Source: a virus. Taken from it: a DNA stretch of 64,000 bases. The stretch is from the IMG/VR virus record IMGVR_UViG_3300031688_001339; one strand, 5' to 3'. The notes under the pieces were generated by a model. It did not search any database. It saw only the letters and a program-made list of their open reading frames with translations, and was not told the origin of the DNA. The position numbers and the translations under genes are program-made. This document shows positions 20,529 through 42,362 of this stretch, one piece after another; the stretch's first letter is position 1, and each line of letters opens with the position of its first letter.

Positions 20529-20603
20529 GCGGGTCTAGCTCATTGGTAGAGCGAATCGTTGCCAACGATTAGGTAGAGGGTCCGATTCCCTTGACCCGCT
20601 CCA
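20529..20603 (+). tRNA. tRNA-Gly (GCC)
   Basis: Acceptor GCGGGTC/GACCCGC, anticodon arm AATCG-TTGCCAA-CGATT, encoded CCA; T-loop TCCGATT (non-canonical). Confidence 0.92.
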
Positions 20604-20617
20604 AATGTCTTAAAACA

Positions 20618-20646
20618 TTGACAATTAAGAAAAAATATAGTATATT
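20618..20646 (+). promoter_or_regulatory. Sigma70-type promoter for gp55 (TTGACA-17-TATATT)
   Basis: Near-consensus; ATG is the 7th base after the -10. Confidence 0.75.
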
Positions 20647-20652
20647 AATATT

Positions 20653-21213
20653 ATGAATAACAAACAGAAAAAAGAACATTACGTAAATAATAAAGAGTTC
20701 TTGGCGGCTATGATTATCTACAGAAAAGCTGTACGTAGAGCAATAAGATTGAAAGAGCCTAAACCAATGGTGGGTAACTACCTTGGCAGTTGTTTTTTAA
20801 AGATTGCGAATCACCTTTCATACAGACCTAATTTTATAAACTACACATTTAAAGATGATATGATATCAGATGGTATTGAAAACTGTCTACAATATCTTGA
20901 CAACTTTGATGGTAAAAAATCAAATAATCCTTTTGCTTACTTTACTCAAATAATCTACTATGCATTTATTAGAAGAATACAAAAAGAGAAAAAGCAAGTT
21001 ACAATTAAACATAAACTGATAAGTAAATCTAATCTAGATGACTTTGCTCTACAGCCAGGTGAAGACCGAGAGTTTAAGAATCAGATGACGGAATACTTAC
21101 AGAAAAATTTACCTATGGATTCACAAGAAAAAATTGCTGAAGAAATAGTTAAATCTAAAAAGAAACGTAAACCTAGAAAGAAGACAAGCACTTTAGATTA
21201 TTTTTTAAGTTAA
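20653..21213 (+). CDS. gp55: Late sigma factor gp55
   Basis: HYVNNKEF, NFINYT, NPFAYFTQI, AFIRRIQKEKKQ. Confidence 0.95.
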   Translation: MNNKQKKEHYVNNKEFLAAMIIYRKAVRRAIRLKEPKPMVGNYLGSCFLKIANHLSYRPNFINYTFKDDMISDGIENCLQYLDNFDGKKSNNPFAYFTQIIYYAFIRRIQKEKKQVTIKHKLISKSNLDDFALQPGEDREFKNQMTEYLQKNLPMDSQEKIAEEIVKSKKKRKPRKKTSTLDYFLS

Positions 21214-21220
21214 GTCAAGT

Positions 21221-22267
21221 ATGAAGATAGCATTACTAAACGATACTCATTTTGGTTGCCGTAACGATTCTCCACACTTCATCAATTATCAGAATAGATT
21301 TTATGATGAACTATTTTTTCCCTATTTAATAGAGAATAAGATAGATACATTAGTGCATTTAGGAGATGTCGTTGATAGACGTAAGTTTATAAACCATAAT
21401 ACAGCACACAATTTCAGACTGAAATTCTGGAATAGATTACAAGAATTAAATATTGATACTCATGTTATATTAGGTAACCATGACACCTATTATAAGAATA
21501 CAAATGAAGTCAATGCCATACAAAACTTAAATCTAGGGCCTGATATAAAAATATATACAAGAGCAACCGAAGTAAATATTGGTGGTTTAGATATGTTGTT
21601 TATACCTTGGATTTGTGACGATAATAGAGAAGATACTATCTTTCAGATTGATAACTCTACATCACAAATTGCAATGGGTCATTTAGAAGTAAAAGGTTTT
21701 GAAATGCATAAAGGAGTTATGAACGAACACGGATTTGAAAGAGAACACTTTAGAAGATTTGAAAAAGTATTATCAGGACACTTTCACAAGAAGTCAGATG
21801 ATGGCCAGATATTCTATCTAGGTACACAATATCAAATTATGTGGTCAGACTATAACTGTCCTAAAGGATTTCATACGTTTGATACGGACACCAGAGAGTT
21901 AGATAGAATAGAAAACCCTATGCCTATATTTAAAAAATTGGTATATGATGATACTAAAACAAACTATGATGGTTTAGATTTAAAAGATTATGAAAACTGT
22001 TTCGTAAAACTATTCGTATCTCAAAAAACTGATACCGATATGTATGGTAGACTAGTTGAAAGATTTTATAATAACGCAAACGTACATGAATTAATTATTA
22101 ATGAAGATACAAATGATATTACTCAAACAGTAAGAGCAGACATTTTAGATTCAGGAGAAGATACGTTGACCTTTCTAGGTAACTATATTGATCAGATAGA
22201 CACAGATTTAGATAAACATAAACTAAAGGAGTTTGCTAAAGAATTATATACAGAGGCAAATGAATGA
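21221..22267 (+). CDS. gp47: Recombination nuclease gp47 (Mre11/SbcD-like)
   Basis: DTHFG, LGDVVDRR, GNHD, SGHFH. Confidence 0.95.
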   Translation: MKIALLNDTHFGCRNDSPHFINYQNRFYDELFFPYLIENKIDTLVHLGDVVDRRKFINHNTAHNFRLKFWNRLQELNIDTHVILGNHDTYYKNTNEVNAIQNLNLGPDIKIYTRATEVNIGGLDMLFIPWICDDNREDTIFQIDNSTSQIAMGHLEVKGFEMHKGVMNEHGFEREHFRRFEKVLSGHFHKKSDDGQIFYLGTQYQIMWSDYNCPKGFHTFDTDTRELDRIENPMPIFKKLVYDDTKTNYDGLDLKDYENCFVKLFVSQKTDTDMYGRLVERFYNNANVHELIINEDTNDITQTVRADILDSGEDTLTFLGNYIDQIDTDLDKHKLKEFAKELYTEANE

Positions 22268-23979
22268 TAGTATTTAAAAATATTAAATATAAAAACTTTC
22301 TATCTACAGGTAATACACCGATAGAGATAGACTTAAATAAATCACATACTACATTAATTGTAGGTCAAAACGGTTCAGGTAAATCAACACTACTAGACGC
22401 CCTTTGTTTTGTTTTATTTAATAAACCATTTAGAATCATTAAGAAAGAACAAATAGTAAACTCAATAAACAATACGGAAACTATTGTTGAAATAACCTTT
22501 GATGTTGGTACAAAAGAATTTAAAATAATACGTGGTATCAAACCTAATATATTTGAGATATATTGTGACGGAGAGTTATTAAATCAGGACGCCAACAGTA
22601 TTGATTATCAAAAGTATTTAGAACAAAATATAATGAGACTTAACTATAGGTCTTTTTTACAAGTAGTATTATTAGGCTCATCATCTTATGAACCCTTTAT
22701 GAAAATGAAACCTAGGTACAGACGAGAGGTTGTAGAAGAAATATTAGACATAAGAGTATTCGGACTTATGGATTTAATATTAAGAAGTCAACAATCAGAC
22801 CTTGCAAAAAAGGTAATAGAAATGAGGCACCGTTGTGATCTCATACAAACCAAGTATGAAACAGAGTTAAATCACTTCAATGCTATCTCCGACCTTAATA
22901 TGAACGACCTAGATGGTAAGAAACAGCTTATTGATCAAAACAAAGAAGATAATAATACATATAGTAAGAAGATAGAAGAATTAAATGAGAAGATAGGATA
23001 TCATAAAGAAGAAGTGGCAGAGAAAGGCAAGGTAGAAAAGAAAGTAAATCAGTTATCTAAACTAGAAGCTAAGATTGAAACTAACTTATCTACACACCAA
23101 AAGTCATTAGAGTTTTTTGAAAACAACGATAACTGTCCTACTTGCACACAACCTATTGATCACGAGTTTAAAGGTAATAAGATAGAGGCAACCAAACAAA
23201 AGATTAAAACTCTACAAGAAGGCATGAACGAATTGCTAACAGAGATTACTAATACAGAGATTAAATTAACTGAAATGAATAAGGTATCACAAAAGATAAA
23301 CGAATTGAATATAGATATATCTAAATTTGAAACGTCTTTAGATGAAATTAATAAATTCAGTAATAGAATACACGAAGAAATTAAACTATTAGAAAACAAA
23401 CAAGTTGATGGTAAAGAAATTAAACAACATCTAGAAAAACTAAATTTAGATTTAGAAGAAGGTAAAATAGAAAGAGATAGAATAATAGAACAAAAAAGTT
23501 ACGTAGACATATTAAGAACAATCTTAAATGACAAGGGTGCTAAGGCACAGATTATACGTAAGTATGTTCCTATTATGAATAACTTAATCAATCAACACTT
23601 ACAAGCTATGGACTTCTTTGTATCTTTTCATTTAGATGAGGAGTTTAATGAAACTATAAAGAGTAGATTCAGAGACGGCTTTAACTATAATAACTTTAGT
23701 GAGGGTGAAAAAATGAGAATAGACCTTGCATTATTATTTACTTGGAGACACATAGCTAAAATGAAAAACAGTACCAATACCAACCTATTAATACTAGATG
23801 AAATTTTTGATGGTAGTTTAGATGGTCAAGGTACAGATGATTTCTTTAAGATTATAACTCAACTATCAAAAGAAAATATCTTTATTATATCACACAAAGG
23901 AGATATAATGTTTGATAAATTTACAAATATAATTAAGTTTGAAAAATATAAAAACTTTACAAGACTACAACAAGCATAA
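22264..23979 (+). CDS. gp46: Recombination ATPase gp46 (Rad50/SbcC-like)
   Basis: GQNGSGKST, CPTC hook, FSEGEK, LDEIFDGSLD. Confidence 0.96.
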   Translation: MIVFKNIKYKNFLSTGNTPIEIDLNKSHTTLIVGQNGSGKSTLLDALCFVLFNKPFRIIKKEQIVNSINNTETIVEITFDVGTKEFKIIRGIKPNIFEIYCDGELLNQDANSIDYQKYLEQNIMRLNYRSFLQVVLLGSSSYEPFMKMKPRYRREVVEEILDIRVFGLMDLILRSQQSDLAKKVIEMRHRCDLIQTKYETELNHFNAISDLNMNDLDGKKQLIDQNKEDNNTYSKKIEELNEKIGYHKEEVAEKGKVEKKVNQLSKLEAKIETNLSTHQKSLEFFENNDNCPTCTQPIDHEFKGNKIEATKQKIKTLQEGMNELLTEITNTEIKLTEMNKVSQKINELNIDISKFETSLDEINKFSNRIHEEIKLLENKQVDGKEIKQHLEKLNLDLEEGKIERDRIIEQKSYVDILRTILNDKGAKAQIIRKYVPIMNNLINQHLQAMDFFVSFHLDEEFNETIKSRFRDGFNYNNFSEGEKMRIDLALLFTWRHIAKMKNSTNTNLLILDEIFDGSLDGQGTDDFFKIITQLSKENIFIISHKGDIMFDKFTNIIKFEKYKNFTRLQQA

Positions 23980-23988
23980 GGAGAAAAT

Positions 23989-24720
23989 ATGGGCAGTACT
24001 CAAAAAAACGTGATGAAAAAACCTAAACAAAACATGACTAAAATATCGGCTAAAGATAATAAACAAAGTCCGAAATACGAGGAGAAAGTCAAAGAAGAAG
24101 TAACTGAAACGGTTGTTGAACCTAAACATAAAGATTATAGTAAAACTAAAACATATAGTCTAATACCACCTAGGGATCCTAGAATACAATCAGCAATAGC
24201 ACCTTTCAGTGATGATATGTTAAAGGAACATGGTCTTAAAGATAGAAAAGAATTAGCGGAACAGATGTTTGCTACTATGAGAAAATATGGTGGCATAGGT
24301 TTAACTTGCAATCAAGTTGGTTTACCTTTCAACATGTTCGTAATAGGCGACCACCCTCATATAGAAGATGGTTTAAAAATGGCATGTTTCAATCCTATGA
24401 TAATCACACAAGGTGAGGAAAAAGTAGTGATGAAAGAGGGTTGTTTAACCTTTCCTTTTGTCTTTTTATCTATTACAAGACCACGTAAAGTTATTGTAAA
24501 GTACGAAGATGAAGATGGTAAACTACAAGAAGGACATCTAGACGGTATGATCAGTAGAGTATTCCAACATGAACACGAACACACTCTAGGTAGAAATTTT
24601 ACAGAGGGACAGAGTAAAATGAAACTAGACTTGGCATATAAGAAAGCTGGAAAACAGATGAAAGCTTATGAAAAACATAAGAAAGCCATGGAAAAAGTAG
24701 ATAATAGGATGATTCCATAG
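23989..24720 (+). CDS. def: Peptide deformylase with N-terminal extension
   Basis: GIGLTCNQVG, EGCLT, QHEHEH motifs. Confidence 0.9.
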   Translation: MGSTQKNVMKKPKQNMTKISAKDNKQSPKYEEKVKEEVTETVVEPKHKDYSKTKTYSLIPPRDPRIQSAIAPFSDDMLKEHGLKDRKELAEQMFATMRKYGGIGLTCNQVGLPFNMFVIGDHPHIEDGLKMACFNPMIITQGEEKVVMKEGCLTFPFVFLSITRPRKVIVKYEDEDGKLQEGHLDGMISRVFQHEHEHTLGRNFTEGQSKMKLDLAYKKAGKQMKAYEKHKKAMEKVDNRMIP

Positions 24721-24725
24721 TAGGC

Positions 24726-24754
24726 TTGACATTGAGGAAAGTTTATGATAGGAT
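24726..24754 (+). promoter_or_regulatory. Early promoter TTGACA-17-TAGGAT
   Basis: Member of recurring GGCTTGAC..TAGGAT family. Confidence 0.75.
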
Positions 24755-24760
24755 TACATT

Positions 24761-26101
24761 ATGACAGCAGTACCAAAAGAAGACTTTGATATACACGCCA
24801 AGCAAGATTTAGAAGGCGTTGAAAGAAAGTGGAAACAGTTTCAAGAAGAAAACGATATTGAGGCTCTTGAACAAGTAGACGAGAGAGTACTTACAGAAGC
24901 TATTCAAAAAGATTTGGGATACGTGTCAAAGATGACAGTACAAGAGTATACCCTATTTCAAAAGTGGCAAGAAGTACATAGAAAATTCCCTACAACCGAA
25001 TCAACTACATTGTATGGTACTGAAAAAATACTAACATCACCTGAACAAAAAACTCAAATAGATACAGTTAGAAACAATATCTGGATTCCCGAATCACCTG
25101 AAGATTATGATAAGTTAGAACCTGTATTAGAATTTACAGATGACAGTACAAAGAATTTCAAAGGCAAAGCAGTAAGAACAGCCAAACTATCAGAGAACTG
25201 GAATACATTAAGAACTTTCTTATCTACTATGAAAAACAATAGTAATATTGGTAGACAATTATTCTTTAATGTAAATGATAATAGATCAGGTAAACATTTA
25301 GGTGTCATTTGTATATCTGGTGACTTCATGGATTTAACACCTAGAGACAGTGCTATTGGTTGGGACAGACAGAGTAAAACATTTGGTGGCATGATTAATC
25401 ATACAGCAATTGGTTCTTCTATTGTACCTACACAACCATTAGGTTACAGTTATACAGGTGGTAAACTATTAGCATATCTATGTTTATCAGATCAGGTACA
25501 GAAATTATGGCACGACAAGTATGGCGACAAGTTAGTAGGAGTTACTACAACATCTTTATATGGTAAGGCGAAAGCAAATACTTTAAGTCAATATGATGGT
25601 TTAAAATATTGGAAACGTATGGGTTTCACTATGGGATCTGTTTCATATGAACCACAACCAGCAACTAAAAAACTAATTAAACAATGGTTAAAGAAAAACC
25701 ATACTAGAAAATACTTTGAATGGTATGAAGCAACGAGAGCCAACGGTCAACCATTAAAAAGAGATCACAAGAATAGATCGTATATGTTTACTTATTCTAA
25801 AATGGGTATAGAAAAATCTTTAATCAAAACAGACCACGCCAGAGGTATCTATTTTGCAAGACTATTTGAAAACACTTATGAGTATTTAAGAGGTGAAGTA
25901 AAAGATGATGGTCTTATTAAACGATTCGATTCGTCTACAGAGGGATTAGTCAAAGTATGGAAAGAAAAACATGCTTCAAAAAGAATTAAAAACCTATTAG
26001 CAACTGATAGGTTCTCCAAAGAATCACACTTCTATGATGATTTGATATACTTGGATTGGGAAGAGTGCAAGGAAAAGTACTTAAATCAAGTCGGAAGATA
26101 A
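24761..26101 (+). CDS. DUF4338 (DruA-like) protein, predicted Mom-like GNAT fold; paralog 1
   Basis: PRDSAIGW, IVPTQPLGYSYTGGKLLA, TTTSLYG, SQYDGL, WKRMGFTMG. Confidence 0.65.
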   Translation: MTAVPKEDFDIHAKQDLEGVERKWKQFQEENDIEALEQVDERVLTEAIQKDLGYVSKMTVQEYTLFQKWQEVHRKFPTTESTTLYGTEKILTSPEQKTQIDTVRNNIWIPESPEDYDKLEPVLEFTDDSTKNFKGKAVRTAKLSENWNTLRTFLSTMKNNSNIGRQLFFNVNDNRSGKHLGVICISGDFMDLTPRDSAIGWDRQSKTFGGMINHTAIGSSIVPTQPLGYSYTGGKLLAYLCLSDQVQKLWHDKYGDKLVGVTTTSLYGKAKANTLSQYDGLKYWKRMGFTMGSVSYEPQPATKKLIKQWLKKNHTRKYFEWYEATRANGQPLKRDHKNRSYMFTYSKMGIEKSLIKTDHARGIYFARLFENTYEYLRGEVKDDGLIKRFDSSTEGLVKVWKEKHASKRIKNLLATDRFSKESHFYDDLIYLDWEECKEKYLNQVGR

Positions 26102-26124
26102 CGAATCAAACAAGAAAATATAAT

Positions 26125-26139
26125 GTTCTCATTATGTTC
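26125..26139 (+). promoter_or_regulatory. Candidate alphaproteobacterial LexA box GTTC-N7-GTTC
   Basis: GTTC tcattat GTTC; degenerate inverse GAAT-N7-GAAA at 26103-26117. Confidence 0.5.
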
Positions 26140-26175
26140 TTTCAATAAGCAAGTAACCACAACGAATTATATGGC

Positions 26176-26204
26176 TTGACTTTCCTGTCTTTTCCATATA
26201 GGAT
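26176..26204 (+). promoter_or_regulatory. Early promoter TTGACT-17-TAGGAT
   Basis: Same promoter family. Confidence 0.75.
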
Positions 26205-26212
26205 AAGTGTAT

Positions 26213-28510
26213 ATGAAAAATAAAACCACTACAAAAATTAGCCTTGATCAAAAAAGTCAACTTGCTAAACTTATCGCTACAGAGAATATATCAATTCAAC
26301 ATAACAATGTTAAGACAGCTTCATTTGATGTTAAGAATAGAGTACTAACACTACCTATCTTTAAAACTAAAAGTGTTGATGTATATGACATGTTAATCGC
26401 CCATGAGTGTGCTCATGCTTTATTTACTCCTTACGGAAAATGGGCTAAAATAAATGATGATGAGTTAAGAGCATACATCAATGTATTAGAAGATTGTAGA
26501 ATAGACAAAAAAATTCAAACAAGATATGAGGGTGTAGTTAAAAACTATATCAATGGTTTTGATATCTTAAACAAAGCAAATTTCTTTGGTATTAAAAACA
26601 AAGATATGAACAAAGACTTTATGTTGATTGATAAGATCAACGTATTTTACAAGTCATCTAAAAGACTTAAAATTAATTTTACAACTGCTGATAATAAATG
26701 GTTAGCAAAAGTTAATTCTCTTACATCATTTACTAGTGTAGTTAAGTTAGCAAAAGAAATGTTAGCTTGGCAGAAAAAAGATATTAAAAACAAAGAAAAG
26801 GATTCAGATTTTTCTGGTAGTACTTTAGATAAGTTATATAAACTTGCTGATAAACATATCAAACCAGGTGAGTCTAAAGAAAAACAAGAAGAAAAAAAAG
26901 ATGAATCTTATGCGGAAACTGAAAGTAAAGATGAAGTAAAAGAAGAAGATAACAAAGTAGAATCAAACTCAACTAATTCAGCACCTGAACACGGTAACGG
27001 TGCCGATGAGGGTGAAGATGGTTACAATTTAGATTCTAGAAAATTCATTGCTGTTACTGATCAAACATATCAAAAGAATACAGAAAGTTTAACTGATAGA
27101 ACATGTGACTATAACTATGTTAATCTACCAGATGTTAATTTGAAGAAAGTTATTATTTCTAATAAAACTTTTCTATCTGAAATGAGAGAATATATTGCTG
27201 GTGAAAAAAAGCATTATGCTGGTACACACGAATATTTAATGTGGTTAAAAAATGACTACAAAAAATATATCAAAGATAACATGAAAACAGTTAACTATCT
27301 TGTTAAAGAGTTTGAAATGAAAAAAAGTGCTACGGCATATAAAAGAGCTAGTACTGATAAAACTGGTACTATTGATCCTTTAAAATTAAAAGATTACAAA
27401 TTTAGTGATGATATATTTAAAAGATTAACTATTATACCTACAGAGAAGAATCATGGTATGATGATGTTACTTGATTGGTCTGGTAGTATGGCAAACGATC
27501 TTAAAAAGACTATTGATCAATTAATAAATTTAGTTATGTTTTGTAGAAAAATCAATATACCTTTTAAAGTATATATGTTTACTACTGAATATTCTTATAA
27601 ACAAGGTTTAGATAAGTACAGTCAATCAACAAATAAATCTGTATGGAAATACAAATCTGGTGACATGTATTTAGAGAACTTTAATCTAGTTGAATTAGCA
27701 GATCATAAATCAAAGAAAAAAGATTTAGAAGAATCTTTAATGTATGTTTACAATATGGGTTCATGTTATGATCAAAGCGTTAGAAGTTCTTTCTGGAATA
27801 ATGAAAAAGCTTATGAAGGTAGTAGATTTCATATGCCTAGTCAATACAATCTTGGTACTACACCTCTTAACGAAGCATTAGTTACGTGTCTTAAAATAGT
27901 TCCTATGTTTAAAAGAAAATACAACGTAGAAAAAATGACTTTCATTACCCTAACAGACGGTGGTGCAAATTATACAGGTGAAGCAAAAGTTATATTAGGT
28001 GAGAACGGTCTTACCAGAAAACATAAAGATGAGTGTAGAGTTGGTGCCGTTGATAAGAATGCACCATATGTACCAGTTAAAACAGTTATCAAAATTGGTA
28101 AAAGATCATATGTTAATGAGGACAGTAGAGAAGGACTTACCAATTTGATGTTAACATTAATTCAAAAAGAACACGGTATTAAAACAATTGGTTTCTATGT
28201 TCTTAAACAAATCAAGTGGTGGGATATCAGTAGTTATGTTAGACACTTTAAAAATTACGATCACAGAAATGATATGATGAATAGAATCAAAGCTACCTTT
28301 GCAAAAGAAAAAGCAGTACTAGTACATAACAAAGGTTACAATAAGTACTTTCTTCTTAATGGTAAATCAATGAAAGTTCAAAATGTTGATCTATCAGCGA
28401 TTACAAATGATTCGAAAACTGCTTCAATTAAGTCAGTATTCAGTAAGAGTATGAAAGGAAGAATCACTTCCAGAACGGTATTAAACAAATTCATAGAGGA
28501 GGTTGCTTAA
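26213..28510 (+). CDS. CobT-like protein: N-terminal HExxH domain, acidic linker, VWA domain
   Basis: AHECAHA, NVLEDCRI, LLDWSGSM (MIDAS), GTTPL, LTDG. Confidence 0.8.
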   Translation: MKNKTTTKISLDQKSQLAKLIATENISIQHNNVKTASFDVKNRVLTLPIFKTKSVDVYDMLIAHECAHALFTPYGKWAKINDDELRAYINVLEDCRIDKKIQTRYEGVVKNYINGFDILNKANFFGIKNKDMNKDFMLIDKINVFYKSSKRLKINFTTADNKWLAKVNSLTSFTSVVKLAKEMLAWQKKDIKNKEKDSDFSGSTLDKLYKLADKHIKPGESKEKQEEKKDESYAETESKDEVKEEDNKVESNSTNSAPEHGNGADEGEDGYNLDSRKFIAVTDQTYQKNTESLTDRTCDYNYVNLPDVNLKKVIISNKTFLSEMREYIAGEKKHYAGTHEYLMWLKNDYKKYIKDNMKTVNYLVKEFEMKKSATAYKRASTDKTGTIDPLKLKDYKFSDDIFKRLTIIPTEKNHGMMMLLDWSGSMANDLKKTIDQLINLVMFCRKINIPFKVYMFTTEYSYKQGLDKYSQSTNKSVWKYKSGDMYLENFNLVELADHKSKKKDLEESLMYVYNMGSCYDQSVRSSFWNNEKAYEGSRFHMPSQYNLGTTPLNEALVTCLKIVPMFKRKYNVEKMTFITLTDGGANYTGEAKVILGENGLTRKHKDECRVGAVDKNAPYVPVKTVIKIGKRSYVNEDSREGLTNLMLTLIQKEHGIKTIGFYVLKQIKWWDISSYVRHFKNYDHRNDMMNRIKATFAKEKAVLVHNKGYNKYFLLNGKSMKVQNVDLSAITNDSKTASIKSVFSKSMKGRITSRTVLNKFIEEVA

Positions 28511-28540
28511 AAGGTAATGGTATCAACGCTTCTTTTAGGC

Positions 28541-28569
28541 TTGCTTTCTATGACAAATCCTGATAGGAT
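28541..28569 (+). promoter_or_regulatory. Early promoter TTGCTT-17-TAGGAT
   Basis: Same promoter family. Confidence 0.65.
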
Positions 28570-28604
28570 AAAGGATAAAAACAACGTAACAAAAGGATAA
28601 CACT

Positions 28605-29825: not shown

Positions 29826-29836
29826 AGCTTAGTGTA

Positions 29837-29900
29837 ATCCTTGTGGGTGGTGTAGTGGCCACCCACGTTATAAGAGGATAAATTAATCACTACAGAAAGG
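29837..29900 (+). promoter_or_regulatory. Pseudoknot-forming leader upstream of bS21
   Basis: Stem GTGGGTGG/CCACCCAC; loop TGTAGTG complementary to CACTACA next to the SD. Confidence 0.55.
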
Positions 29901-29909
29901 AATAATAAA

Positions 29910-30119: not shown

Positions 30120-30158
30120 TTTAGTTATTTAACGCTTGTGTTTGATATATATATTATG

Positions 30159-30316: not shown

Positions 30317-30425
30317 AGGGTTGTATATTAATATAACGTACTTATATATAAGCCAGATATACATTAAGGCAGTAGCCGTATATTTGAAGAAGACAAACTA
30401 ACAGCCAGTAGGCAAAGGAGATAGT

Positions 30426-31564: not shown

Positions 31565-32116
31565 ATGATTAAGATACCAAAAATAACATTTAAAACTAGA
31601 GTTGGTGACCTGACCGAATCAGGAGAATGTAACTTTGAAAGCGGAAAATGGGTTGATGTAACATCAGCTAATCTCTTTGACAATAAAAGAGTTGTTTTGT
31701 TTAGTTTACCAGGTGCTTTTACACCTACATGTACATCACAACAACTACCTGGTTATGAATCAAGTGCAAAAGTTTTTAAGATTTCTCACAACATAGATGA
31801 AGTTTATTGTGTTTCAGTAAATGATTCGTTTGTGATGAATGCGTGGGCTCATGCTTCAAATATAAAAAACGTTAAGATGATACCAGATGGTAACGGAGAA
31901 CTAACAAAGGCATTAGATATGTTAGTTACCAAAGAAGCCATTGGTTTTGGTTATCGTTCTTGGAGATATGCAGCTATAATAAATGACGGTGAGATAGAGA
32001 AAATGTTTGTAGAACCTGGTAAAGAGATCAACGATTCTTCGGATCCGTATGGTGTTTCTTCTCCAGAAAACGTTTTATCTTACTTACAAGTGAAAGAAAT
32101 TAAGGAGTCAGTTTAA
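31565..32116 (+). CDS. Peroxiredoxin (Prx5/PRX5-like)
   Basis: LPGAFTPTCTSQQLPG, SVNDSFVMNAW, PDGNG, RSWRYA. Confidence 0.93.
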   Translation: MIKIPKITFKTRVGDLTESGECNFESGKWVDVTSANLFDNKRVVLFSLPGAFTPTCTSQQLPGYESSAKVFKISHNIDEVYCVSVNDSFVMNAWAHASNIKNVKMIPDGNGELTKALDMLVTKEAIGFGYRSWRYAAIINDGEIEKMFVEPGKEINDSSDPYGVSSPENVLSYLQVKEIKESV

Positions 32117-32155: not shown

Positions 32156-32229
32156 GCGGATATAGTATAAAAGTATTATGAGAGATTTCCAATCTTTAGA
32201 ACTAGGGGCAGTACCTGGTATCCGCTCCA
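32156..32229 (+). tRNA. tRNA-Gly (TCC), atypical D and T loops
   Basis: Acceptor GCGGATA/TATCCGC, anticodon loop TTTCCAA, T-arm CTAGG-GGCAGTA-CCTGG, encoded CCA; no GG in D-loop. Confidence 0.85.
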
Positions 32230-32249
32230 TTAATAATGAAAAGGAGTGA

Positions 32250-33284: not shown

Positions 33285-33306
33285 TGAATAAATTGGAGTA
33301 TATATT

Positions 33307-34251: not shown

Positions 34252-34322
34252 GTGAACGTATAAATAAGATAAAAAATGAATTATATCATTTATAATATTA
34301 AAGATAAAGAAAGAAAAGACAA

Positions 34323-34460
34323 GTGGCCAAGAGAACAATATTTAGGACAATTATAGTTAAAATGAGAATGTGGTATGCAGATATACGAGGACATCATGGA
34401 AAACGTTGGGATTATGAACCTGGCGATTGGTATATGGGCAGACATAACAAACGAAAGTAG
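34323..34460 (+). CDS. Small basic hypothetical protein (45 aa, MAKRTIFRTIIVKMRMWYADIRGHHG...)
   Basis: GTG start; downstream of TATAAATA at 34259-34266; below track cutoff. Confidence 0.45.
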   Translation: MAKRTIFRTIIVKMRMWYADIRGHHGKRWDYEPGDWYMGRHNKRK

Positions 34461-34469
34461 AAAGGTTTC

Positions 34470-34545
34470 GCCCTTTTAGCTCAGCTGGTAGAGCAACTGA
34501 TTTGTAATCAGTAGGTCATCTGTTCGACTCGGATAAAGGGCACCA
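34470..34545 (+). tRNA. tRNA-Thr (TGT)
   Basis: GCCCTTT/AAAGGGC acceptor, anticodon loop TTTGTAA, canonical TTCGA T-loop, encoded CCA, 76 nt. Confidence 0.95.
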
Positions 34546-34555
34546 GAATTATATT

Positions 34556-34948
34556 ATGTACGAACTAAAAGATTATCTAAAAGCAATTAACGAGACCAAG
34601 GTCAATTTGTTGAATACAACAGATCAAGCCTGGACTAAAAAATACCCACCATTTATAATAAACAAGTGTTTATCTATGTTTTGGGATACACTTCCACATG
34701 CCAATGAAATGAATGGTTATCACTTCTTGGACAAGGATATACAGTTTCAATTTTTACTAAATAGTGTTAGAACAAAGAAGCGGTTTGGAGGCAAGTGGAT
34801 CAAAAAACAAAAACTGCATGATTTGGAAGTTGTAAAAGAGTATTATGGTTACAGTAATGAAAAAGCGAGAACAGCCTTACAAGTACTTACACCAGAAAAT
34901 ATTATTAAAATTAAAGAAGCCTGTAACAAGGGCGGGAGAACTAAATGA
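34556..34948 (+). CDS. gp62: Clamp loader subunit gp62
   Basis: YPPFIINKCLS, VKEYYGYSNEKA. Confidence 0.9.
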   Translation: MYELKDYLKAINETKVNLLNTTDQAWTKKYPPFIINKCLSMFWDTLPHANEMNGYHFLDKDIQFQFLLNSVRTKKRFGGKWIKKQKLHDLEVVKEYYGYSNEKARTALQVLTPENIIKIKEACNKGGRTK

Positions 34949-35391
34949 ATGAAGAAGTAACTTGGACACAAGAGAGTATGTTAGAGGTAACCTTGAAGCA
35001 ACCAGACGATTTCCTAAAGGTAAGAGAAACATTAACACGAATTGGTGTTGCAAGTAGAAAAGATAAAACTCTTTTCCAATCATGTCATATTTTACATAAG
35101 CAAGGTAAGTATTACATAGTACATTTTAAAGAGTTGTTTGCCCTAGATGGTAAAAAAGCAACCTTAATAAACAATGATATTCAACGTAGAAATACAATAG
35201 CCGTTCTATTACAGGACTGGAATTTAATTGATATTGTTCTAAAAGAGACAGCAGTATCTAACAAAGCACCATTATCACAAATAAAAGTTTTACCGTTTAA
35301 AGAGAAAAAAGAGTGGATATTATCTGCTAAATATAACATAGGTAAAAAAATTGTTAAGGAAAATGGTCAAGATGAAAATACCAAAGTTTAG
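34945..35391 (+). CDS. regA: Translational repressor RegA
   Basis: DDFLKVRETLTRIG, QSCHILHKQG, VHFKELF. Confidence 0.96.
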   Translation: MNEEVTWTQESMLEVTLKQPDDFLKVRETLTRIGVASRKDKTLFQSCHILHKQGKYYIVHFKELFALDGKKATLINNDIQRRNTIAVLLQDWNLIDIVLKETAVSNKAPLSQIKVLPFKEKKEWILSAKYNIGKKIVKENGQDENTKV

Positions 35392-36841
35392 AGACTACAT
35401 AACAGAGCAAGATAATAGTCGTGATGAAGACAATATCACGGTTGCTATTCTTACTATAAACGATTCAGATAAACCTAATAAGGATTCAACTGTTGAACTT
35501 ATAGAAAAAGCATGTAAAAAGAAGAAGATAGAATGTATTATTGTAAATACTAAATCAGCAATTATCACAGACAAAGACGAAGAAAAGAATACCCTTACAG
35601 TTTATAATTACGATGGTAAAGATGGTGAATACACCTTTACAGGTAGAGATACACTTTGTATAACAAGAGCAGGTGCAGTAGAAGACGAAGCTGGTCTTTC
35701 TTTAATATCTGCCTTTCAAAACTCGTCAGCATTTATGGCTAACACAAGAGCTGCGATGTTAACTTGCGATAACAAACTTACGTCTGCTTTACTATTTGAA
35801 AAATTTGGTATACCTACACCTACAACATCTTTTATATCAAACGAAAAGAATATAAAAGCAGGACTAGATAAGGTTGGTGGTAAATTTCCTATAATCTTAA
35901 AGACATTAACTGGTACACAAGGTATCGGTGTAATCAAAATAGAAAGTTATGAGGGTCTAGTTGCAACAGCACAAGCAATGTGGAAACTAGAGTCTGAACT
36001 TTTGATACAAGAATTTATGCCTACGAAGTTTGACGTTAGAACTTTTGTGGTAGATAACAAAGTTATTGCATGTACAAAAAGAGTACATAGTAGTTATGAC
36101 TTTAGATCAAATACACACAGAGGTGCTGAAGCAGAACCTTACATATTAAGTGAAGAAGAATATGAATTGGTTTTAAAAACTGCTAGAGTTTCAAAAGCAT
36201 ATATGGTAGGAGTTGATCACATAGTATTTAATAATAAACCATACATTTTAGAAATCAATGGTAGTCCAGGATCAGGTGCTGATTACGAGGGTTACCAATA
36301 TAAAGATTACTATTCAGTAGGCGAACCATCTGGAAGAATAGATGGTGAAAAAATGATGGAGTTTTTAGTTGATTATATTTCAGAAAGAAAACATTGGGAT
36401 AGACAAGCACTTTTAGAATGTGGTTGGCTTGAGACAGTTGAAATAGAGGGCATTGCTAAAGTTAGAGCTAAACTTGATAGTGGTAACGGATCAAAAGCAT
36501 GTGCTTTACATGCCGATAAAATTTTAGAAAAAGATGGTAAAATTGTAAAATGGAAATATGACGGTAAGATTTTTAGTAAACCTAAACATGGTGTAAGTAA
36601 AATCTTTAGAGCAAATGCTGAGGGTGAAGAACCATCTGAAATTAGACCTACAGTATTATTAGATATTACATTTAATGGTTTCACATATAAAGATATAGAA
36701 GTTGGATTAGATAGTAGACCTAGAGCTGCTTCAGACTTACTAGTTAATAGAGATTTAATGCGATTGATGAATGTCAGTATAAACCCTAATAGAACATTCG
36801 CCTTGAGCAAACGGTTAAAACCGATAGATAAAAAAGATTAG
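35372..36841 (+). CDS. RimK-like ATP-grasp ligase fused to RimB/retropepsin-like protease domain
   Basis: GTQGIGV, IQEF, DVR, FRSNTHRG, GVD, LEINGSPG; C-terminal AKLDSGNG...RP...LDSR...LLVNR. Confidence 0.8.
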   Translation: MKIPKFRDYITEQDNSRDEDNITVAILTINDSDKPNKDSTVELIEKACKKKKIECIIVNTKSAIITDKDEEKNTLTVYNYDGKDGEYTFTGRDTLCITRAGAVEDEAGLSLISAFQNSSAFMANTRAAMLTCDNKLTSALLFEKFGIPTPTTSFISNEKNIKAGLDKVGGKFPIILKTLTGTQGIGVIKIESYEGLVATAQAMWKLESELLIQEFMPTKFDVRTFVVDNKVIACTKRVHSSYDFRSNTHRGAEAEPYILSEEEYELVLKTARVSKAYMVGVDHIVFNNKPYILEINGSPGSGADYEGYQYKDYYSVGEPSGRIDGEKMMEFLVDYISERKHWDRQALLECGWLETVEIEGIAKVRAKLDSGNGSKACALHADKILEKDGKIVKWKYDGKIFSKPKHGVSKIFRANAEGEEPSEIRPTVLLDITFNGFTYKDIEVGLDSRPRAASDLLVNRDLMRLMNVSINPNRTFALSKRLKPIDKKD

Positions 36842-37064
36842 TCGTTGATAAGAAGACAATAACTATGCAGGACCTCGGTGCAATACCGAGCAACTCCACC
36901 ATTAAACCAAAATTTATGGGGTTGAAATAGGATCGACTCGTAGGTAAAACTTCTAGGAGATTAATCGCTAACATCGTACTGTTAATTAAATGCTAACTCA
37001 CAAGGTTTCGCATTAGCGGCTTAGTCCGCTAGGGGTTTGCCTGTACCTCGCAACAGAAACAGGC
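36838..37064 (+). ncRNA. ssrA: Two-piece (circularly permuted) tmRNA; tag ANSQGFALAA at 36992-37024
   Basis: Acceptor piece ends CAACTCC-A-CCA (36901); coding piece starts GGGGTTG (36918) with G3:U pair; T-arm CTCGG/CCGAG; tag ORF ending ALAA-stop; terminal pseudoknot. Outer ends approximate. Confidence 0.92.
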
Positions 37065-37066
37065 GC

Positions 37067-37095
37067 TTGACAAACCGCTAAATATATGATATATT
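37067..37095 (+). promoter_or_regulatory. Sigma70-type promoter TTGACA-17-TATATT
   Basis: Near consensus upstream of the ferredoxin/gp43 operon. Confidence 0.7.
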
Positions 37096-37120
37096 ATAAC
37101 AATAAACAAAAGGAAATATT

Positions 37121-37426
37121 ATGCAAGAAGTGAAAATATTAAGACTATCTACAGGCGAAGATGTAATTGCTAAGGTAGGAGAAAACGACCAAGGGGTAAG
37201 TTTAAAGAACCCATTTGTAATCATACCACAACAAAAAGCACCAGGACAACCAATACAATTAATGATGTCTTTGTACAATGCGTTTGGTAAAAGCAATACT
37301 ATTACAGTAGCTAAAGATAAAATAGTCTTTATAACAGACCCTAAAGACGAAATCTTAAAATCATACGAGAACAATACAAGCACTATCATTGCACCAAAGC
37401 CAGGACTAATCACAGAGAATAAGTGA
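37121..37426 (+). CDS. Conserved T4-like hypothetical protein (possible Sm-like fold)
   Basis: VKILRLSTGEDVIA; typical position upstream of gp43. Confidence 0.65.
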   Translation: MQEVKILRLSTGEDVIAKVGENDQGVSLKNPFVIIPQQKAPGQPIQLMMSLYNAFGKSNTITVAKDKIVFITDPKDEILKSYENNTSTIIAPKPGLITENK

Positions 37427-37755
37427 TAACTGTTAACTTTATCAGGACAAACAACGAAAAAGTCCAAGTTAAAGTACCTGTTGGTTGGACAGTAATGGAG
37501 GCGGCTAAAGAAGCATGTCTAGATGAAATTCCTGCCAGTTGTGGTGGTTGTTGTGCCTGTGGTACATGTCACGTGTACGTAGGCAATGCCTGGATTGCCA
37601 AACTAGGTGAAATAGATTATAATAGTACTGAACAATGTATGTTAGAATACGAAGCTTCATACAAGAAAGGCATAAGCAGATTGAGTTGTCAACTACCATT
37701 AACAGAGGAACTTGACGGCATAACTTTACATTTACTAGATGATGAACTTTTATAA
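37423..37755 (+). CDS. fdx: 2Fe-2S ferredoxin (adrenodoxin/ISC Fdx type)
   Basis: CGGCCACGTCHVYV ... SRLSCQ. Confidence 0.9.
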   Translation: MITVNFIRTNNEKVQVKVPVGWTVMEAAKEACLDEIPASCGGCCACGTCHVYVGNAWIAKLGEIDYNSTEQCMLEYEASYKKGISRLSCQLPLTEELDGITLHLLDDELL

Positions 37756-40237
37756 ATCAGTTATAGAACATAGAGGCAAACTTCTTGTAAGAGGTATACA
37801 CGAAGGCCAAGACTATAAAGAAAAGATAGATTTTGGTCCTACTTTATATTCTCTAACACAAAAAGAAAGTAAGTTTAAAACTTTAGATAATAGAAATCTA
37901 AACCCAATAAAATTCAAAGATATATCTGCCGCTAGACAATTCAGACGTGAAGTTGCAACTCAAAACTCTCCTGTATATGGCCTAGAACGTTATCACTATC
38001 AGTACATCAACGAACAATTTCCACAAAACATCAAGTGGGATAAAAAGTTTATTAAAATATTCACAATAGATATTGAGACTACAGTAACAGATGGTTTTCC
38101 AGATGTGGATAACCCTACTGAAGAAATCATTTGTATTACAGTTAAGAATCAAACTAACAAACAAATATTAACGTGGGCTAAAGGTGACTATCACACAGAT
38201 AGGACAGATGTAACTTTCATTAAATGTAAAACAGAAAATCAACTCCTTATGGAGTTTATGAAATTCTGGTTAAAGAACTATCCAGATGTTGTTACAGGTT
38301 GGAATACTAAATTCTTTGATCTACCATACTTGATGAATAGAATTAAAATGGTTGCAGGTGAAAAGGTTGCAAACAAGATGTCGCCATGGGGACTTGTAGA
38401 TAAAATTGAAGTCATGGTAAGAGGTAGACCACAAACCTCATATGTTTTAAAAGGTACCGTAATGTTAGACTATCTTGATTTATATAGATGGTTTATTCCT
38501 ACTAGGCAAGAGAGTTATAAGCTAGACTTCATTGGTGAAGTAGAACTTGGTCAAAGAAAAAATGAAAACCCTTATCCAACCTTTAGAGAATTTTACGAGA
38601 AAGACTTTCAAAAGTTTGTTGATTATAACATACAAGATGTAGAACTTGTTGACGCTTTAGAAGATAAACTTGGTCTAATTGAATTAGCATTAACAGTTGC
38701 ATATGAATCTAAAGTAAACTATGATGATATATTTTCACAAGTAAGAGTGTGGGATACTTTGATTGCTAATCATCTATTGGCAAAAAACATATGTATACCA
38801 CCAAGAGAAGAACATAGTAAAGATACAAAATATGAAGGCGCCTATGTAAAAGACCCTACAGTTGGTCAGCATAAGTGGGTATGTTCTTTTGATATTAACT
38901 CACTATATCCTCATATCATTATTCAATACAATATTTCTCCTGAAAAGATAATAGGTCAAGATCCATCTGGTATTTCTGTAAACAAAATGTTGAAAAAAAG
39001 TTTAGACTTGTCACATTTAAAAAATGAAAATGCGTGTGTTACACCTAATGGTGCTAAGTTTAGAAACAATGGCCAAGGTTTCTTACCTGAAATGATGGAA
39101 ACAATGTACAATGAACGTGTCATTTATAAGAAAAGAATGATCGCCGCTAAAAAACAATATCAGAAAACACCAACACCAGAATTACAAAGAGAAATTGCAA
39201 GATGTCATAACATTCAATGGGCAAGAAAGATTGCCTTGAACTCAGCTTACGGTGCAGTTGGCAACCAATACTTTAGATTCTATGATGTAAGACAAGCAGC
39301 TGCTATTACAACAGCAGGTCAATTCATTATTAGATTCATTGAAGAAAAGGTTAACACTTATATGAATACTATTTTAAAATTAAAAGATGAAGACCATCAA
39401 GATTATATCGTGGCTTCTGATACAGATTCAATCTATGTAACATTAGATAAGTTAGTAGAAAAAACATGTCAAGGTAAAGACAACGACCAGATATGTAACT
39501 TTATAGACAAAGTTGTTAACAGTAGACTAGAACCTTTTATTGAAAAATGTTTTGATGAACTATCTGATTATACAAATGCATTTAAGAACTGTATGGTAAT
39601 GAAACGAGAAGTAATTGCCAACAAAGGTATATGGGTTGCAAAGAAAAGATATATGTTAAACGTATTAGATGATGAGGGTGTAAGACTTTCTGAACCTAAA
39701 TTAAAGATCATGGGTATTGAGGCAGTTAAATCATCAACACCACAAGTTTGTAGAGGTAAGATTAAAGAAGCAATCAAAATCATTATGAATAAAGATGAAG
39801 ATACTTTACAGAAATTCATTGCAGAATTTAAAACAGAGTTTAATAGTTTGTCTGCTGAAGCAATATCTTTTCCTAGATCATGTAACAATATTAAAAAGTA
39901 TAGAAACCCAGCAACCATATTCAGTAAAGGTACACCAATACATGTTAAAGGTTCTTTAATATACAATCAAAAACTACGAGAACTTAAATTACATAAACAA
40001 TATCCTTTCATCAAAGAAGGAGATAAGATTAAATTCTTAAAATTAAAAGAAGCTAATCCATTTAGATTTGATGTGATAAGTTATATTACAACTTTACCTG
40101 TAGAGTTCAAACTACAAGAATATATAGATTACGAAACACAATTTGAAAAGACTTTCCTTGACCCTATGAGATTTATCTTACAGGCTATTGGTTGGTCGCA
40201 AGAAAAGAAAGCAAGTTTGGATGCATTTTTTAGTTAG
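37739..40237 (+). CDS. gp43: Family B DNA polymerase gp43
   Basis: DIET exo I, SFDINSLYP, KIALNSAYG, SDTDS, KKRY. Confidence 0.98.
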   Translation: MMNFYKSVIEHRGKLLVRGIHEGQDYKEKIDFGPTLYSLTQKESKFKTLDNRNLNPIKFKDISAARQFRREVATQNSPVYGLERYHYQYINEQFPQNIKWDKKFIKIFTIDIETTVTDGFPDVDNPTEEIICITVKNQTNKQILTWAKGDYHTDRTDVTFIKCKTENQLLMEFMKFWLKNYPDVVTGWNTKFFDLPYLMNRIKMVAGEKVANKMSPWGLVDKIEVMVRGRPQTSYVLKGTVMLDYLDLYRWFIPTRQESYKLDFIGEVELGQRKNENPYPTFREFYEKDFQKFVDYNIQDVELVDALEDKLGLIELALTVAYESKVNYDDIFSQVRVWDTLIANHLLAKNICIPPREEHSKDTKYEGAYVKDPTVGQHKWVCSFDINSLYPHIIIQYNISPEKIIGQDPSGISVNKMLKKSLDLSHLKNENACVTPNGAKFRNNGQGFLPEMMETMYNERVIYKKRMIAAKKQYQKTPTPELQREIARCHNIQWARKIALNSAYGAVGNQYFRFYDVRQAAAITTAGQFIIRFIEEKVNTYMNTILKLKDEDHQDYIVASDTDSIYVTLDKLVEKTCQGKDNDQICNFIDKVVNSRLEPFIEKCFDELSDYTNAFKNCMVMKREVIANKGIWVAKKRYMLNVLDDEGVRLSEPKLKIMGIEAVKSSTPQVCRGKIKEAIKIIMNKDEDTLQKFIAEFKTEFNSLSAEAISFPRSCNNIKKYRNPATIFSKGTPIHVKGSLIYNQKLRELKLHKQYPFIKEGDKIKFLKLKEANPFRFDVISYITTLPVEFKLQEYIDYETQFEKTFLDPMRFILQAIGWSQEKKASLDAFFS

Positions 40238-40711
40238 ATGAAAAAATATATAGAAGACTTTTTTAAATGGGTTAAAGGTACTGAACTAGTTGAACTAGAC
40301 GACATAGATGTATCTGAGGATCCTGTTAGACCTGAACTAACTTTAGGTTTTAGAATTACACACGATAGAAAGATACTAGGATTAAAATACGAAGATAAGA
40401 TTATAGCAGTTGTTTGTATTGCAGTTTGTCCTGAAGTACCACATACTGTTAGAGAAATGGATTATATGTCCAGAGTAAAAGACGGTAACATTGTTGTTGC
40501 ATATACAGTATGGTCTCGTAAACGAGGTGCAGGTCAAGAGATTATTAATAAACTAGCCAAGTATGCAAAAGAAAAACAATATAAAAGACTAGTTACTTTA
40601 TCTCCTCTAACACCAATGGCAACCCATTTTCACATTAAGAACGGTGCTAAACAAGTACATATAAATGATGTAACACAAAATTTTGAATATGATCTCAACA
40701 AAAAAATATAA
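40238..40711 (+). CDS. GNAT-fold-like protein (MCD-like TLSP motif)
   Basis: AYTVWSRKRGAG..II, LVTLSPLT, FHIKNGA resemble GNAT motifs A/B. Confidence 0.5.
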   Translation: MKKYIEDFFKWVKGTELVELDDIDVSEDPVRPELTLGFRITHDRKILGLKYEDKIIAVVCIAVCPEVPHTVREMDYMSRVKDGNIVVAYTVWSRKRGAGQEIINKLAKYAKEKQYKRLVTLSPLTPMATHFHIKNGAKQVHINDVTQNFEYDLNKKI

Positions 40712-41240
40712 CATAATCTATGCCGATCCTCCTTGGCATTTTCAGAATTATAATAATGAAACTGCTCAGACTAATCCAGATAAACATTATCCTACTATGA
40801 CAATGAAAGATATAGAAAATTTACCAATAGGTGATCTTGCAGATACCGATTGTGTATTGTTTATGTGGTGTACAGACCCATTATTACACAAACAAATACC
40901 TCTAGTTGAGAAGTGGGGATTTACATACAAGACAGTAGGTTTCACATGGGCAAAAACAAATAAGACTAGAATAAAAAATTACTTCTTTAAAGGACCTGGA
41001 TATTGGACTAGGGCCAACACTGAAACATGTATCTTGGCAACAAAAGGTAAACCTAAAAGAGTTGGTAAAAACGTAGATAGATTAGTTGTGAGTGAACGTA
41101 GAGAACACAGTAGAAAACCAGATAGAATACGAAGTGATATAGTTGAATTGTGTGGTGATTTACCAAGAATAGAATTATTTGCTAGAACTTCTATGCCTGG
41201 CTGGGACGTATGGGGAAACCAGGTTGACAAATTTAATTAA
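40689..41240 (+). CDS. MT-A70 family N6-adenine methyltransferase
   Basis: IIYADPPW, LFMW, WGFTYKT, HSRKP, RIELFAR, GWDVWGNQ. Confidence 0.92.
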   Translation: MISTKKYNIIYADPPWHFQNYNNETAQTNPDKHYPTMTMKDIENLPIGDLADTDCVLFMWCTDPLLHKQIPLVEKWGFTYKTVGFTWAKTNKTRIKNYFFKGPGYWTRANTETCILATKGKPKRVGKNVDRLVVSERREHSRKPDRIRSDIVELCGDLPRIELFARTSMPGWDVWGNQVDKFN

Positions 41241-41252
41241 ACATGATATACT
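41224..41252 (+). promoter_or_regulatory. Sigma70-type promoter TTGACA-17-TATACT
   Basis: Near consensus; ATG is the 7th base after the -10. Confidence 0.75.
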
Positions 41253-41258
41253 ATAACT

Positions 41259-42362
41259 ATGAAAACTAAAACATTAACTACTGAACAGGCATTGTATTGT
41301 GCTAACATATTTAATGATTACTTCGGTAAGTTTAGTCGTATAGATCAGTATATGAGAGATCAAAAACTATCTCAAATATCAGATGTACCGGCTGCATTAC
41401 CTGGAATGGGTTTAGAGGGTGAAATATTTTCAAACTTTGATATGTCACCTAAAGATATGGACTTTGAAATATTAGAACCAGATAATGAGACGTATAATAC
41501 ATTATTAAATATGATTTCTTCTCATACTAATATGTCAAGTGTACCTGGTAAAAATTTAAAGATTGCAATAAGAGAAAAGAATAGTGGTCAATGGGTAGGT
41601 TTTATAAGATGTGGTTCTCCTGTTATAAACATGAAACCAAGAAACGAATTATTAACTCATGTACCAGAATTAGTAAGTTTCAATAAGACTTCTATTATGG
41701 GATTTGTTATAGTACCAACTCAACCTTTTGGTTTTAATTACCTAGGTGGTAAACTATTAGCAGCTATATGTTGTAGTCACACTATAAGAGAAAAATTAAA
41801 TGACAAATATGGTATGAACTTATCATTGTTTGAAACTACAAGTTTATATGGTAATAGTAAATCATCAAGTCAATATGATGGCATGAAACCTTATTTAAGA
41901 TACAAAGGTCTAACCGATAGTGACTTCATACCTTTGATACATGGCAAACCTTTCCATGACCTATCTGACTATGCTGAAAATTGCGTTGGTCAACTTGTTA
42001 AACAAGACGCTTCAAGTAGAAAATTAAAACAAACACAAGCTATAATTGCTTTAATTAAAAGATCATTATCAGGTAATGATTTAGAAACTTTTAATACAAC
42101 TATAAGTAATGCAAAGAAACTAACTGAAAGAAAAAGATACTATGTTAGTGACTATGGTATTAAGAACTATCTAGATATAGTAAAAGATAACACTAAAGAA
42201 ATAATCAAAGGTGAGAATTGGGATAAATTTGAACTAAATAATATCATACAATGGTGGAAAAAGAAAGCAGAATCAAGATATAATAAACTAAAAGAAGATG
42301 GTAGATTAAGAAATGATTTAGAAATCTGGACACCAGAGGCAGAAATAGACATTATCAGATAA
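41259..42362 (+). CDS. DUF4338 (DruA-like) protein, predicted Mom-like GNAT fold; paralog 2
   Basis: GFIRCGSP, PRN, IVPTQPFGFNYLGGKLLA, ETTSLYG, SQYDGM, YKGLT. Confidence 0.65.
   Translation: MKTKTLTTEQALYCANIFNDYFGKFSRIDQYMRDQKLSQISDVPAALPGMGLEGEIFSNFDMSPKDMDFEILEPDNETYNTLLNMISSHTNMSSVPGKNLKIAIREKNSGQWVGFIRCGSPVINMKPRNELLTHVPELVSFNKTSIMGFVIVPTQPFGFNYLGGKLLAAICCSHTIREKLNDKYGMNLSLFETTSLYGNSKSSSQYDGMKPYLRYKGLTDSDFIPLIHGKPFHDLSDYAENCVGQLVKQDASSRKLKQTQAIIALIKRSLSGNDLETFNTTISNAKKLTERKRYYVSDYGIKNYLDIVKDNTKEIIKGENWDKFELNNIIQWWKKKAESRYNKLKEDGRLRNDLEIWTPEAEIDIIR

Follow-up and report, generated by a model that had tools for sequence, protein, structure and literature searches.

DruA-family GNAT paralogs and an atypical glycine tRNA family in marine T4-like phages: a possible Gly-tRNA-dependent, Mom-like modification system

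To our knowledge, the transfer of an amino acid from tRNA to DNA has been demonstrated for a single enzyme family, that of phage Mu Mom, and as recently as 2026. Mom takes glycine from Gly-tRNA-Gly, and an essential, helix-turn-helix-like DNA-binding insertion is located between strands β6 and β7 of the protein (Silva et al. 2026, PMC13219725). In staphylococci, certain tRNA-Gly copies escape EF-Tu and serve as donors for the Fem transferases; the discrimination resides in their altered D and T arms (PMC7826273). DUF4338, the domain of the DruA family, has already been published as a GNAT domain by Aravind's group (PMC10853773). The subject of this report is a stretch of 64,000 nucleotides, the virus record IMGVR_UViG_3300031688_001339 of IMG/VR (the whole stretch analyzed is called "the window" here), which carries two DruA-family paralogs and two glycine tRNA genes, one of them atypical. 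A prior, sequence-only reading of this DNA stated, correctly in view of PMC13219725, that Mom uses Gly-tRNA-Gly, and proposed that the two paralogs transfer glycine from phage-supplied tRNA to DNA. In the form favored here, which we put forward tentatively, the paralogs would be Gly-tRNA-dependent transferases, probably acting on DNA in a Mom-like manner, for which SAR11 phages supply a dedicated donor tRNA. The features on which this reading depends are:

20529..20603, plus strand: tRNA-Gly(GCC), found by ARAGORN; Rfam 62.1 bits; encoded CCA; near-canonical.
24726..24754, plus strand: sigma-70-like promoter of paralog 1, with TTGACA, 17 nt and a TG-extended TAGGAT (TG.TAGGAT); a consensus match only.
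24761..26101, plus strand: DruA-family GNAT paralog 1 (P0001), 446 amino acids; Pfam DruA 1.2e-15, PADLOC DruA 6e-16.
32156..32229, plus strand: atypical tRNA-Gly(UCC); Rfam tRNA 41.8 bits (cut-off 29); U73; encoded CCA.
41224..41252, plus strand: sigma-70-like promoter of paralog 2, with TTGACA, 17 nt and a TG-extended TATACT (TG.TATACT); a consensus match.
41259..42362, plus strand: DruA-family GNAT paralog 2 (P0002), 367 amino acids; Pfam DruA 6.5e-7, PHROG phrog_19197 1e-146.

Both protein genes are, almost certainly, DruA-family GNAT enzymes that have no role in Druantia. They score 57.9 and 29.2 bits against Pfam DruA/DUF4338 (PF14236), above its gathering cut-off of 27, both match the PADLOC DruA model, and the Pfam model is matched by 60 of 60 aligned relatives. 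The two open reading frames and their shared motifs (IVPTQP.G..Y.GGKLLA, TTSLYG and SQYDG) are present as the sequence-only reading described them for two divergent paralogs, which are 38% identical across 150 amino acids by BLASTP (E 8e-25). K165, T193, Y206, W333 and R340 are invariant in the DruA-like family, and both paralogs retain the GNAT residues that do not vary in the family. The partner genes of Druantia type I, DruB-DruE (with a large YprA-like helicase), were not found around either gene, where the neighbors are deformylase, peptidase, gp43, GNAT, MT-A70 and UvsX; with no Druantia operon at either site, the earlier view that these genes play no part in that defense holds. Membership of the family says nothing about mechanism.

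The paralogs differ in distribution. Paralog 1 is confined to pelagimyophages, with orthologs in the same genomic slot of the Pelagibacter phages Mosig (57%) and HTVC008M (51%). Paralog 2 is the form shared with T4-like cyanophages (phrog_19197); the isolates that carry it are HTVC008M and about 26 of the roughly 460 T4-like cyanophages on record, and marine metagenomes hold 5,413 clusters of it at 90% identity. A family profile search of 1.8 billion representatives returned 1,062 clusters. In almost all cases the cyanophage ortholog of paralog 2 is flanked by the clamp-loader genes gp44 and gp62. Since Mosig and the cyanophages each have just one of the two paralogs, the enzymes need not form a heterodimer. 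In the window each paralog has its own predicted promoter, and both predicted -10 elements end exactly 6 nt upstream of the ATG (24754 to 24761 and 41252 to 41259). With TTGACA-17-TG(-10) elements ending 6 nt before the start codon, the "leaderless" geometry claimed earlier is thus real as a sequence pattern, and under a strict pattern it recurs 5' of close relatives of paralog 2 (DruA2) at 24 of 100 loci.

Two of the three tRNAs in the window are indeed glycine tRNAs with altered T loops (the third, by ARAGORN, is tRNA-Thr(UGU)), and the degree of alteration is very unequal. The T loop of tRNA-Gly(GCC), UCCGAUU, has one non-canonical base (U55 to C), and its relatives in L163 and L203 have the canonical UUCGAAU. 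The T loop of tRNA-Gly(UCC), GGCAGUA, is non-canonical throughout, its D loop (AAAAGUA) lacks GG, and its anticodon loop is TTTCCAA; in the window this gene was missed by ARAGORN and found by Rfam only.

Judged from its sequences, the gene family at 32156 is a large, phage-only family of glycine tRNAs. It is present on at least 120 IMG/VR contigs, and its 70 distinct sequences align without gaps, with 99.5% of cells paired; 13 of the 20 pairs covary through double changes, values that shuffled alignments and slid registers did not approach. Invariant in all 70 are G1-C72, C2-G71, G3-C70, U73, C35 and C36, which are the known bacterial identity elements for glycyl-tRNA synthetase (GlyRS). So is the entire D arm, including the AAAAGUA loop, and in the T loop (NGCRNUA, without T-Ψ-C) G55, C56, U59 and A60 do not vary either; the lost positions are those through which canonical elongator tRNAs make their elbow contacts. 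The wobble base varies: of 82 sequences, 52 have U (anticodon UCC), 27 have A (ACC) and 3 have G (GCC). In HTVC008M the atypical tRNA-Gly, with anticodon ACC, is the sole tRNA of the genome. The Mosig homolog, also ACC, lies on the minus strand of MT647606.1 at 7779-7852 (L086 23805-23878), where it is annotated as the hypothetical protein gene Mosig_000011; a loose first-pass genome-wide Rfam tRNA search missed this copy too. Some relatives carry a canonical tRNA-Gly(GCC) besides the atypical one, and a division of labor between the two would fit.

The sequence-only reading had also considered that host tRNA-Gly might share these odd loops. Across the 185,579 species searched, no genuine prokaryote genome showed the pattern, which thus appears to be phage-only. 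Four matches arose in that search. Three were chance matches lacking acceptor stems, and the fourth was a mis-binned phage contig. This last (NHEU02000038.1, L213), from the metagenome-assembled genome "Alphaproteobacteria bacterium TMED93", is a 10.8-kb contig that encodes gp45, gp44 and gp62, 64-71% identical to those of the window, and carries the atypical tRNA; it represents a piece of a pelagimyophage that was assigned to a bacterial genome in binning.

Enzyme and tRNA co-occur. Phage tRNAs were typed with Rfam and ARAGORN, on which the counts rest because a covariance model with strict filters (R1) missed 5 of 9 canonical cyanophage tRNA-Gly genes; BLAST with tRNA sequences was too insensitive for counting. 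tRNA-Gly(UCC) is encoded by 12 of 14 cyanomyophages with paralog 2 and by 2 of 11 without it (Fisher p=0.0012), so that the co-occurrence test proposed earlier is passed in a first sample. The two phages with the tRNA and without the enzyme are S-PM2 and S-RSM4, which have 25 and 12 tRNAs, respectively. When only genomes with 3-7 tRNAs are compared, tRNA-Gly is present in 6 of 7 with paralog 2 and 0 of 7 without (p=0.0047). Genomes with both are spread over several genera; one, Sf-CH8, has three tRNAs in all, of which one is Gly. Paralog 1 and the atypical tRNA are both present in three of three pelagimyophage isolates, and on one contig (L097) the atypical tRNA lies 65 nt 3' of DruA2. The DruA gene was not found in six tRNA-bearing IMG/VR fragments that lack T4-like genes, a result that is uninformative with fragments just 5-21% complete.

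The fold of paralog 2, as modeled, can be regarded as settled. A single-sequence AlphaFold2 run gave a predicted local distance difference test score (pLDDT) of only 37, and the model used here was built from a 60-sequence alignment, reaching pLDDT 94.3 and a predicted TM-score of 0.91. Foldseek against the PDB returned only GNATs, the best at E 0.008, with no match at E <= 0.001. When the Foldseek seeds were re-ranked with VIA-align, Mom (8bv8) came first (Z 10.1, 183 residues aligned, against 140-155 for other GNATs, root-mean-square deviation 4.2), and in an exhaustive search of 48,161 chains it was again first (Z 9.9, 164 residues aligned); 309 chains had Z >= 8, those listed all being GNATs, and FemA was among the structural matches at Z 8.9. 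With ordinary GNATs within 0.3 Z of Mom in the VIA-align rankings, it follows that the GNAT fold is settled and likeness to Mom only nominal. The comparison suggested by the sequence-only reading, AlphaFold and Foldseek against Mom, thus bore out its GNAT-type fold and left Mom nominally the best structural match, tied with ordinary GNATs. Sequence-based methods added little: a search with protein language model features gave one lead (0.85) to PF22559, GNAT-phage-like, and nothing else, and the family profile, run with hmmsearch against PDB sequences, gave no genuine hit and did not recover 8bv8. Between β6 and β7, flanked by strands 214-218 and 293-297, the model has a three-helix, K/R-rich insertion (residues 229-286), whose place in the topology would be that of the insertion of Mom.

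Other members of the family lend weight to a DNA context. Of ten long members tested, five have an N-terminal ParB_N domain and one a UDG-superfamily domain. ParB_N and UDG are DNA-binding or base-flipping modules of a type often joined to DNA-modifying enzymes. In the ESM Atlas, a cluster of DruA+ParB_N proteins has 235 members, 80% of them viral. The two paralogs, more likely than not, act on DNA. The fusions to ParB_N or UDG-superfamily domains (P0180, P0185, P0187, P0211, P0246 and P0255) are marine and mostly viral, and lie on short contigs; P0255 adjoins a resolvase.

The window itself is, by Pfam and PHROG annotation, the replication/recombination block of a marine T4-like pelagimyophage (SAR11 phage). 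Its nearest isolate is Pelagibacter phage Mosig EXVC030M, at 76% nucleotide identity over parts, and HTVC008M is syntenic with it. The gene order is UvsW, tRNA-Gly(GCC), gp55-like sigma factor, gp47, gp46, peptide deformylase, paralog 1, peptidase, CobS-like AAA, peroxiredoxin, atypical tRNA gene, gp45, gp44, tRNA-Thr, gp62, RegA, RimK-like ATP-grasp protein, permuted transfer-messenger RNA (tmRNA), gp43, small GNAT, MT-A70, paralog 2 and UvsX. The sequence-only reading had placed paralog 2 after DNA polymerase, a GNAT-like gene and a methyltransferase, in agreement with this order, and the grouping of small GNAT, MT-A70 and paralog 2 is kept in relatives L123, L190 and L194. The further features of the block are:

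23989-24720: peptide deformylase, within the replication block, 5' of paralog 1.
31565-32116: peroxiredoxin, within the replication block.
35351-36841: RimK-like ATP-grasp enzyme, 496 amino acids; the gene end overlaps the tmRNA gene.
36799-37115, plus strand: permuted two-piece tmRNA of alphaproteobacterial type, by ARAGORN; tag ANSQGFALAA; absent from the sequence-only reading.
40238..40711, plus strand: small GNAT (Acetyltransf_1, Pfam 1.6e-5), directly 3' of gp43.
40683..41240, plus strand: MT-A70 family adenine methyltransferase (Pfam MT-A70 1.1e-33, full length).

Two observations on cyanophage gene order may be recorded. In S-T4 (L219 590-988) a small gene annotated as a methyltransferase is directly 5' of the DruA2 ortholog, which echoes the pairing of MT-A70 with DruA2. 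In S-SSM7 (L215 8127-8397) a manA RNA motif (123.6 bits) is directly upstream of tRNA-Gly(UCC), 3.2 kb past the DruA2 ortholog and just before gp43.

In the mechanism proposed here, the DruA-family GNAT-fold transferases would be expressed alongside the phage replication genes and would act on nucleic acid, most likely phage DNA. Glycine would be taken from Gly-tRNA-Gly and placed on a base, as Mom of phage Mu does. The phage would provide its own donor, a tRNA-Gly that keeps all that GlyRS needs while its D-loop/T-loop elbow is lost and its wobble base drifts; with these changes, the atypical tRNA would be expected to behave like the staphylococcal non-proteinogenic tRNA-Gly, charged but kept from EF-Tu and the ribosome. 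Donor, target, chemistry and a benefit against restriction are the parts of this scheme that we infer.

An explanation that we consider about equally likely, and so hold as tentatively as the first, is that the paralogs are ordinary acyl-coenzyme A (CoA) GNATs, with DNA, a replication protein or a small molecule as the substrate of acetylation or acylation, and that tRNA-Gly is an unrelated aid to translation of GGA and GGU in an AT-rich phage, the association being a by-product of ancestry or of tRNA-set size. Several results count against a Gly-tRNA-dependent transferase at this point. Mom is tied, in that CoA-dependent GNATs with 140-155 residues aligned come within the same 0.3 Z, which favors the acyl-CoA explanation, as does the glycine-rich loop after β4: this β4-α3 loop, QPFGxNxLGGK, is nearly invariant, resembles a CoA-pyrophosphate loop and is absent from Mom. 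In paralog 2 it reads QPFGFNYLGGK (155-165), similar to the CoA loop Q/RxxGxG/A after β4 and not canonical. Neither paralog matches the Mom Pfam model PF25680 up to E 1, and hhalign of the 60-sequence DruA-like profile against a 20-sequence Mom profile gave a probability of 0.2% (with a single sequence there was no match either), so that the motif parallel to the Mom core drawn by the sequence-only reading is not supported. The catalytic residues of Mom, R111, S124, D149 and R151, could not be mapped onto the DruA-like family. Mom, moreover, uses host tRNAs only and needs no phage tRNA; tRNA-Gly is absent from two cyanophages with paralog 2, S-B68 and DSL-LC02; and in cyanophages the tRNA-Gly(UCC) genes have a canonical form and are clustered in the usual AT-rich-codon set with tRNAs Arg(UCU), Asn, Val(UAC) and Thr(UGU), where codon usage could explain them, the UCC and ACC anticodons being suited to AT-rich Gly codons. 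A phage-supplied tRNA as a requirement is thus not upheld. The cyanophage comparison is itself a small sample, eight of its controls were hand-picked from a classic genome set, and its statistics ignore kinship; and no base modification has been reported for these phages in the literature searched. Against the acyl-CoA explanation, the association holds at matched tRNA number (6/7 vs 0/7), the pelagiphage tRNA is without ribosomal elbow elements yet under strong purifying selection, and switching among U, A and G at the wobble position inside one orthologous family is unusual for a decoder. Of the sequence-only reading as a whole, the GNAT fold, the donor of Mom, the co-occurrence and the phage-only tRNA stand, and the Mom motif parallel and the need for a phage tRNA find no support.

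Two further alternatives would separate the enzymes from DNA or from the tRNA. The enzymes might be Gly-tRNA-dependent transferases with a different acceptor, such as a protein (at its N-terminus or on a side chain), an RNA or a precursor of the cell envelope, after the manner of FemX, L/F-transferase and MprF. Most known aminoacyl-tRNA-dependent GNATs do target peptides, proteins or lipids (PMC13219725), and both the structural match to FemA and the peptide deformylase gene 5' of paralog 1 could be read in this way; the ParB_N/UDG fusions, the placement among replication genes and the adjacency to MT-A70 all point to DNA, as would the modeled helical β6-β7 insertion, seemingly at the site where Mom has its own, and we consider a non-DNA acceptor improbable. 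We give slightly less credence still to the idea that the atypical tRNA has nothing to do with the enzymes, being a decoy or replacement that escapes a tRNA-cleaving defense of the host, or a partner of the phage tmRNA, with the DruA homologs serving as decoys against host Druantia. There are known cases of phage tRNAs that get around the anticodon nucleases of the host, and the NGCRNUA T loop is of the type in alphaproteobacterial tmRNA and in the phage tmRNA at 36799-37115, whose T loop, UGCAAUA, has the same form. A decoy would have no need of the family-invariant GNAT residues that both paralogs keep, no Druantia partner genes are nearby, and in cyanophages the enzyme co-occurs with canonical tRNA-Gly too.

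Extended to its full scope, the Gly-tRNA-dependent reading would mean that DNA hypermodification with tRNA glycine takes place in the abundant pelagimyophages and in some cyanomyophages by means of DruA-family, not Mom-family, enzymes, that SAR11 phages have evolved a private donor tRNA that avoids the ribosome, and, by extension, that DruA of Druantia type I is a tRNA-dependent DNA-modifying (self-marking) enzyme; we regard this wider claim as rather unlikely. If it were true of the DruA family, tRNA-to-DNA amino acid chemistry would be widespread in some of the ocean's most abundant viruses, a first functional clue to DruA of the Druantia defense system would be at hand, and tRNAs evolved for a non-ribosomal transferase would be known from two independent cases, the first being staphylococcal cell-wall synthesis. 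Whatever its role, the atypical tRNA-Gly family is a clean, testable object.

Three known systems invite comparison. No publication that connects DruA with Mom or with tRNA came up in the literature search. With Mom of phage Mu (PF25680, 8bv8) the paralogs share the GNAT fold, Mom being the best structural match in both rankings, and, by the model of paralog 2, seemingly a helical insertion between β6 and β7; Mom is likewise a phage enzyme in a DNA context, and a link to tRNA-Gly is proposed for the paralogs. They differ from it in having no detectable sequence or profile similarity, in their length, which exceeds that of Mom by about 130 to 200 residues and includes a helical N-terminal part and a long helix at the C-terminus, and in keeping the glycine-rich loop after β4. 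Mom, furthermore, is expressed late, whereas the paralogs sit with replication genes behind sigma-70-type promoters. With DruA of Druantia type I (PF14236, PADLOC DruA) they share a Pfam family, both above the curated cut-off, but they are phage genes without DruB-E, located in the replication module of lytic T4-like phages. The staphylococcal non-proteinogenic tRNA-Gly that serves FmhB/FemA/FemB (PMC7826273) is of another lineage: the phage tRNA is unrelated to it, deriving from phage tRNA-Gly(UCC), has other loop sequences and is virus-encoded. The likeness, which is drawn from sequence hints (no G18G19, no T54-Ψ55, a variable wobble base), is that in both cases extra tRNA-Gly copies with GlyRS identity kept, D and T arms altered and A/U-rich first T-stem pairs are found alongside a GNAT-fold enzyme.

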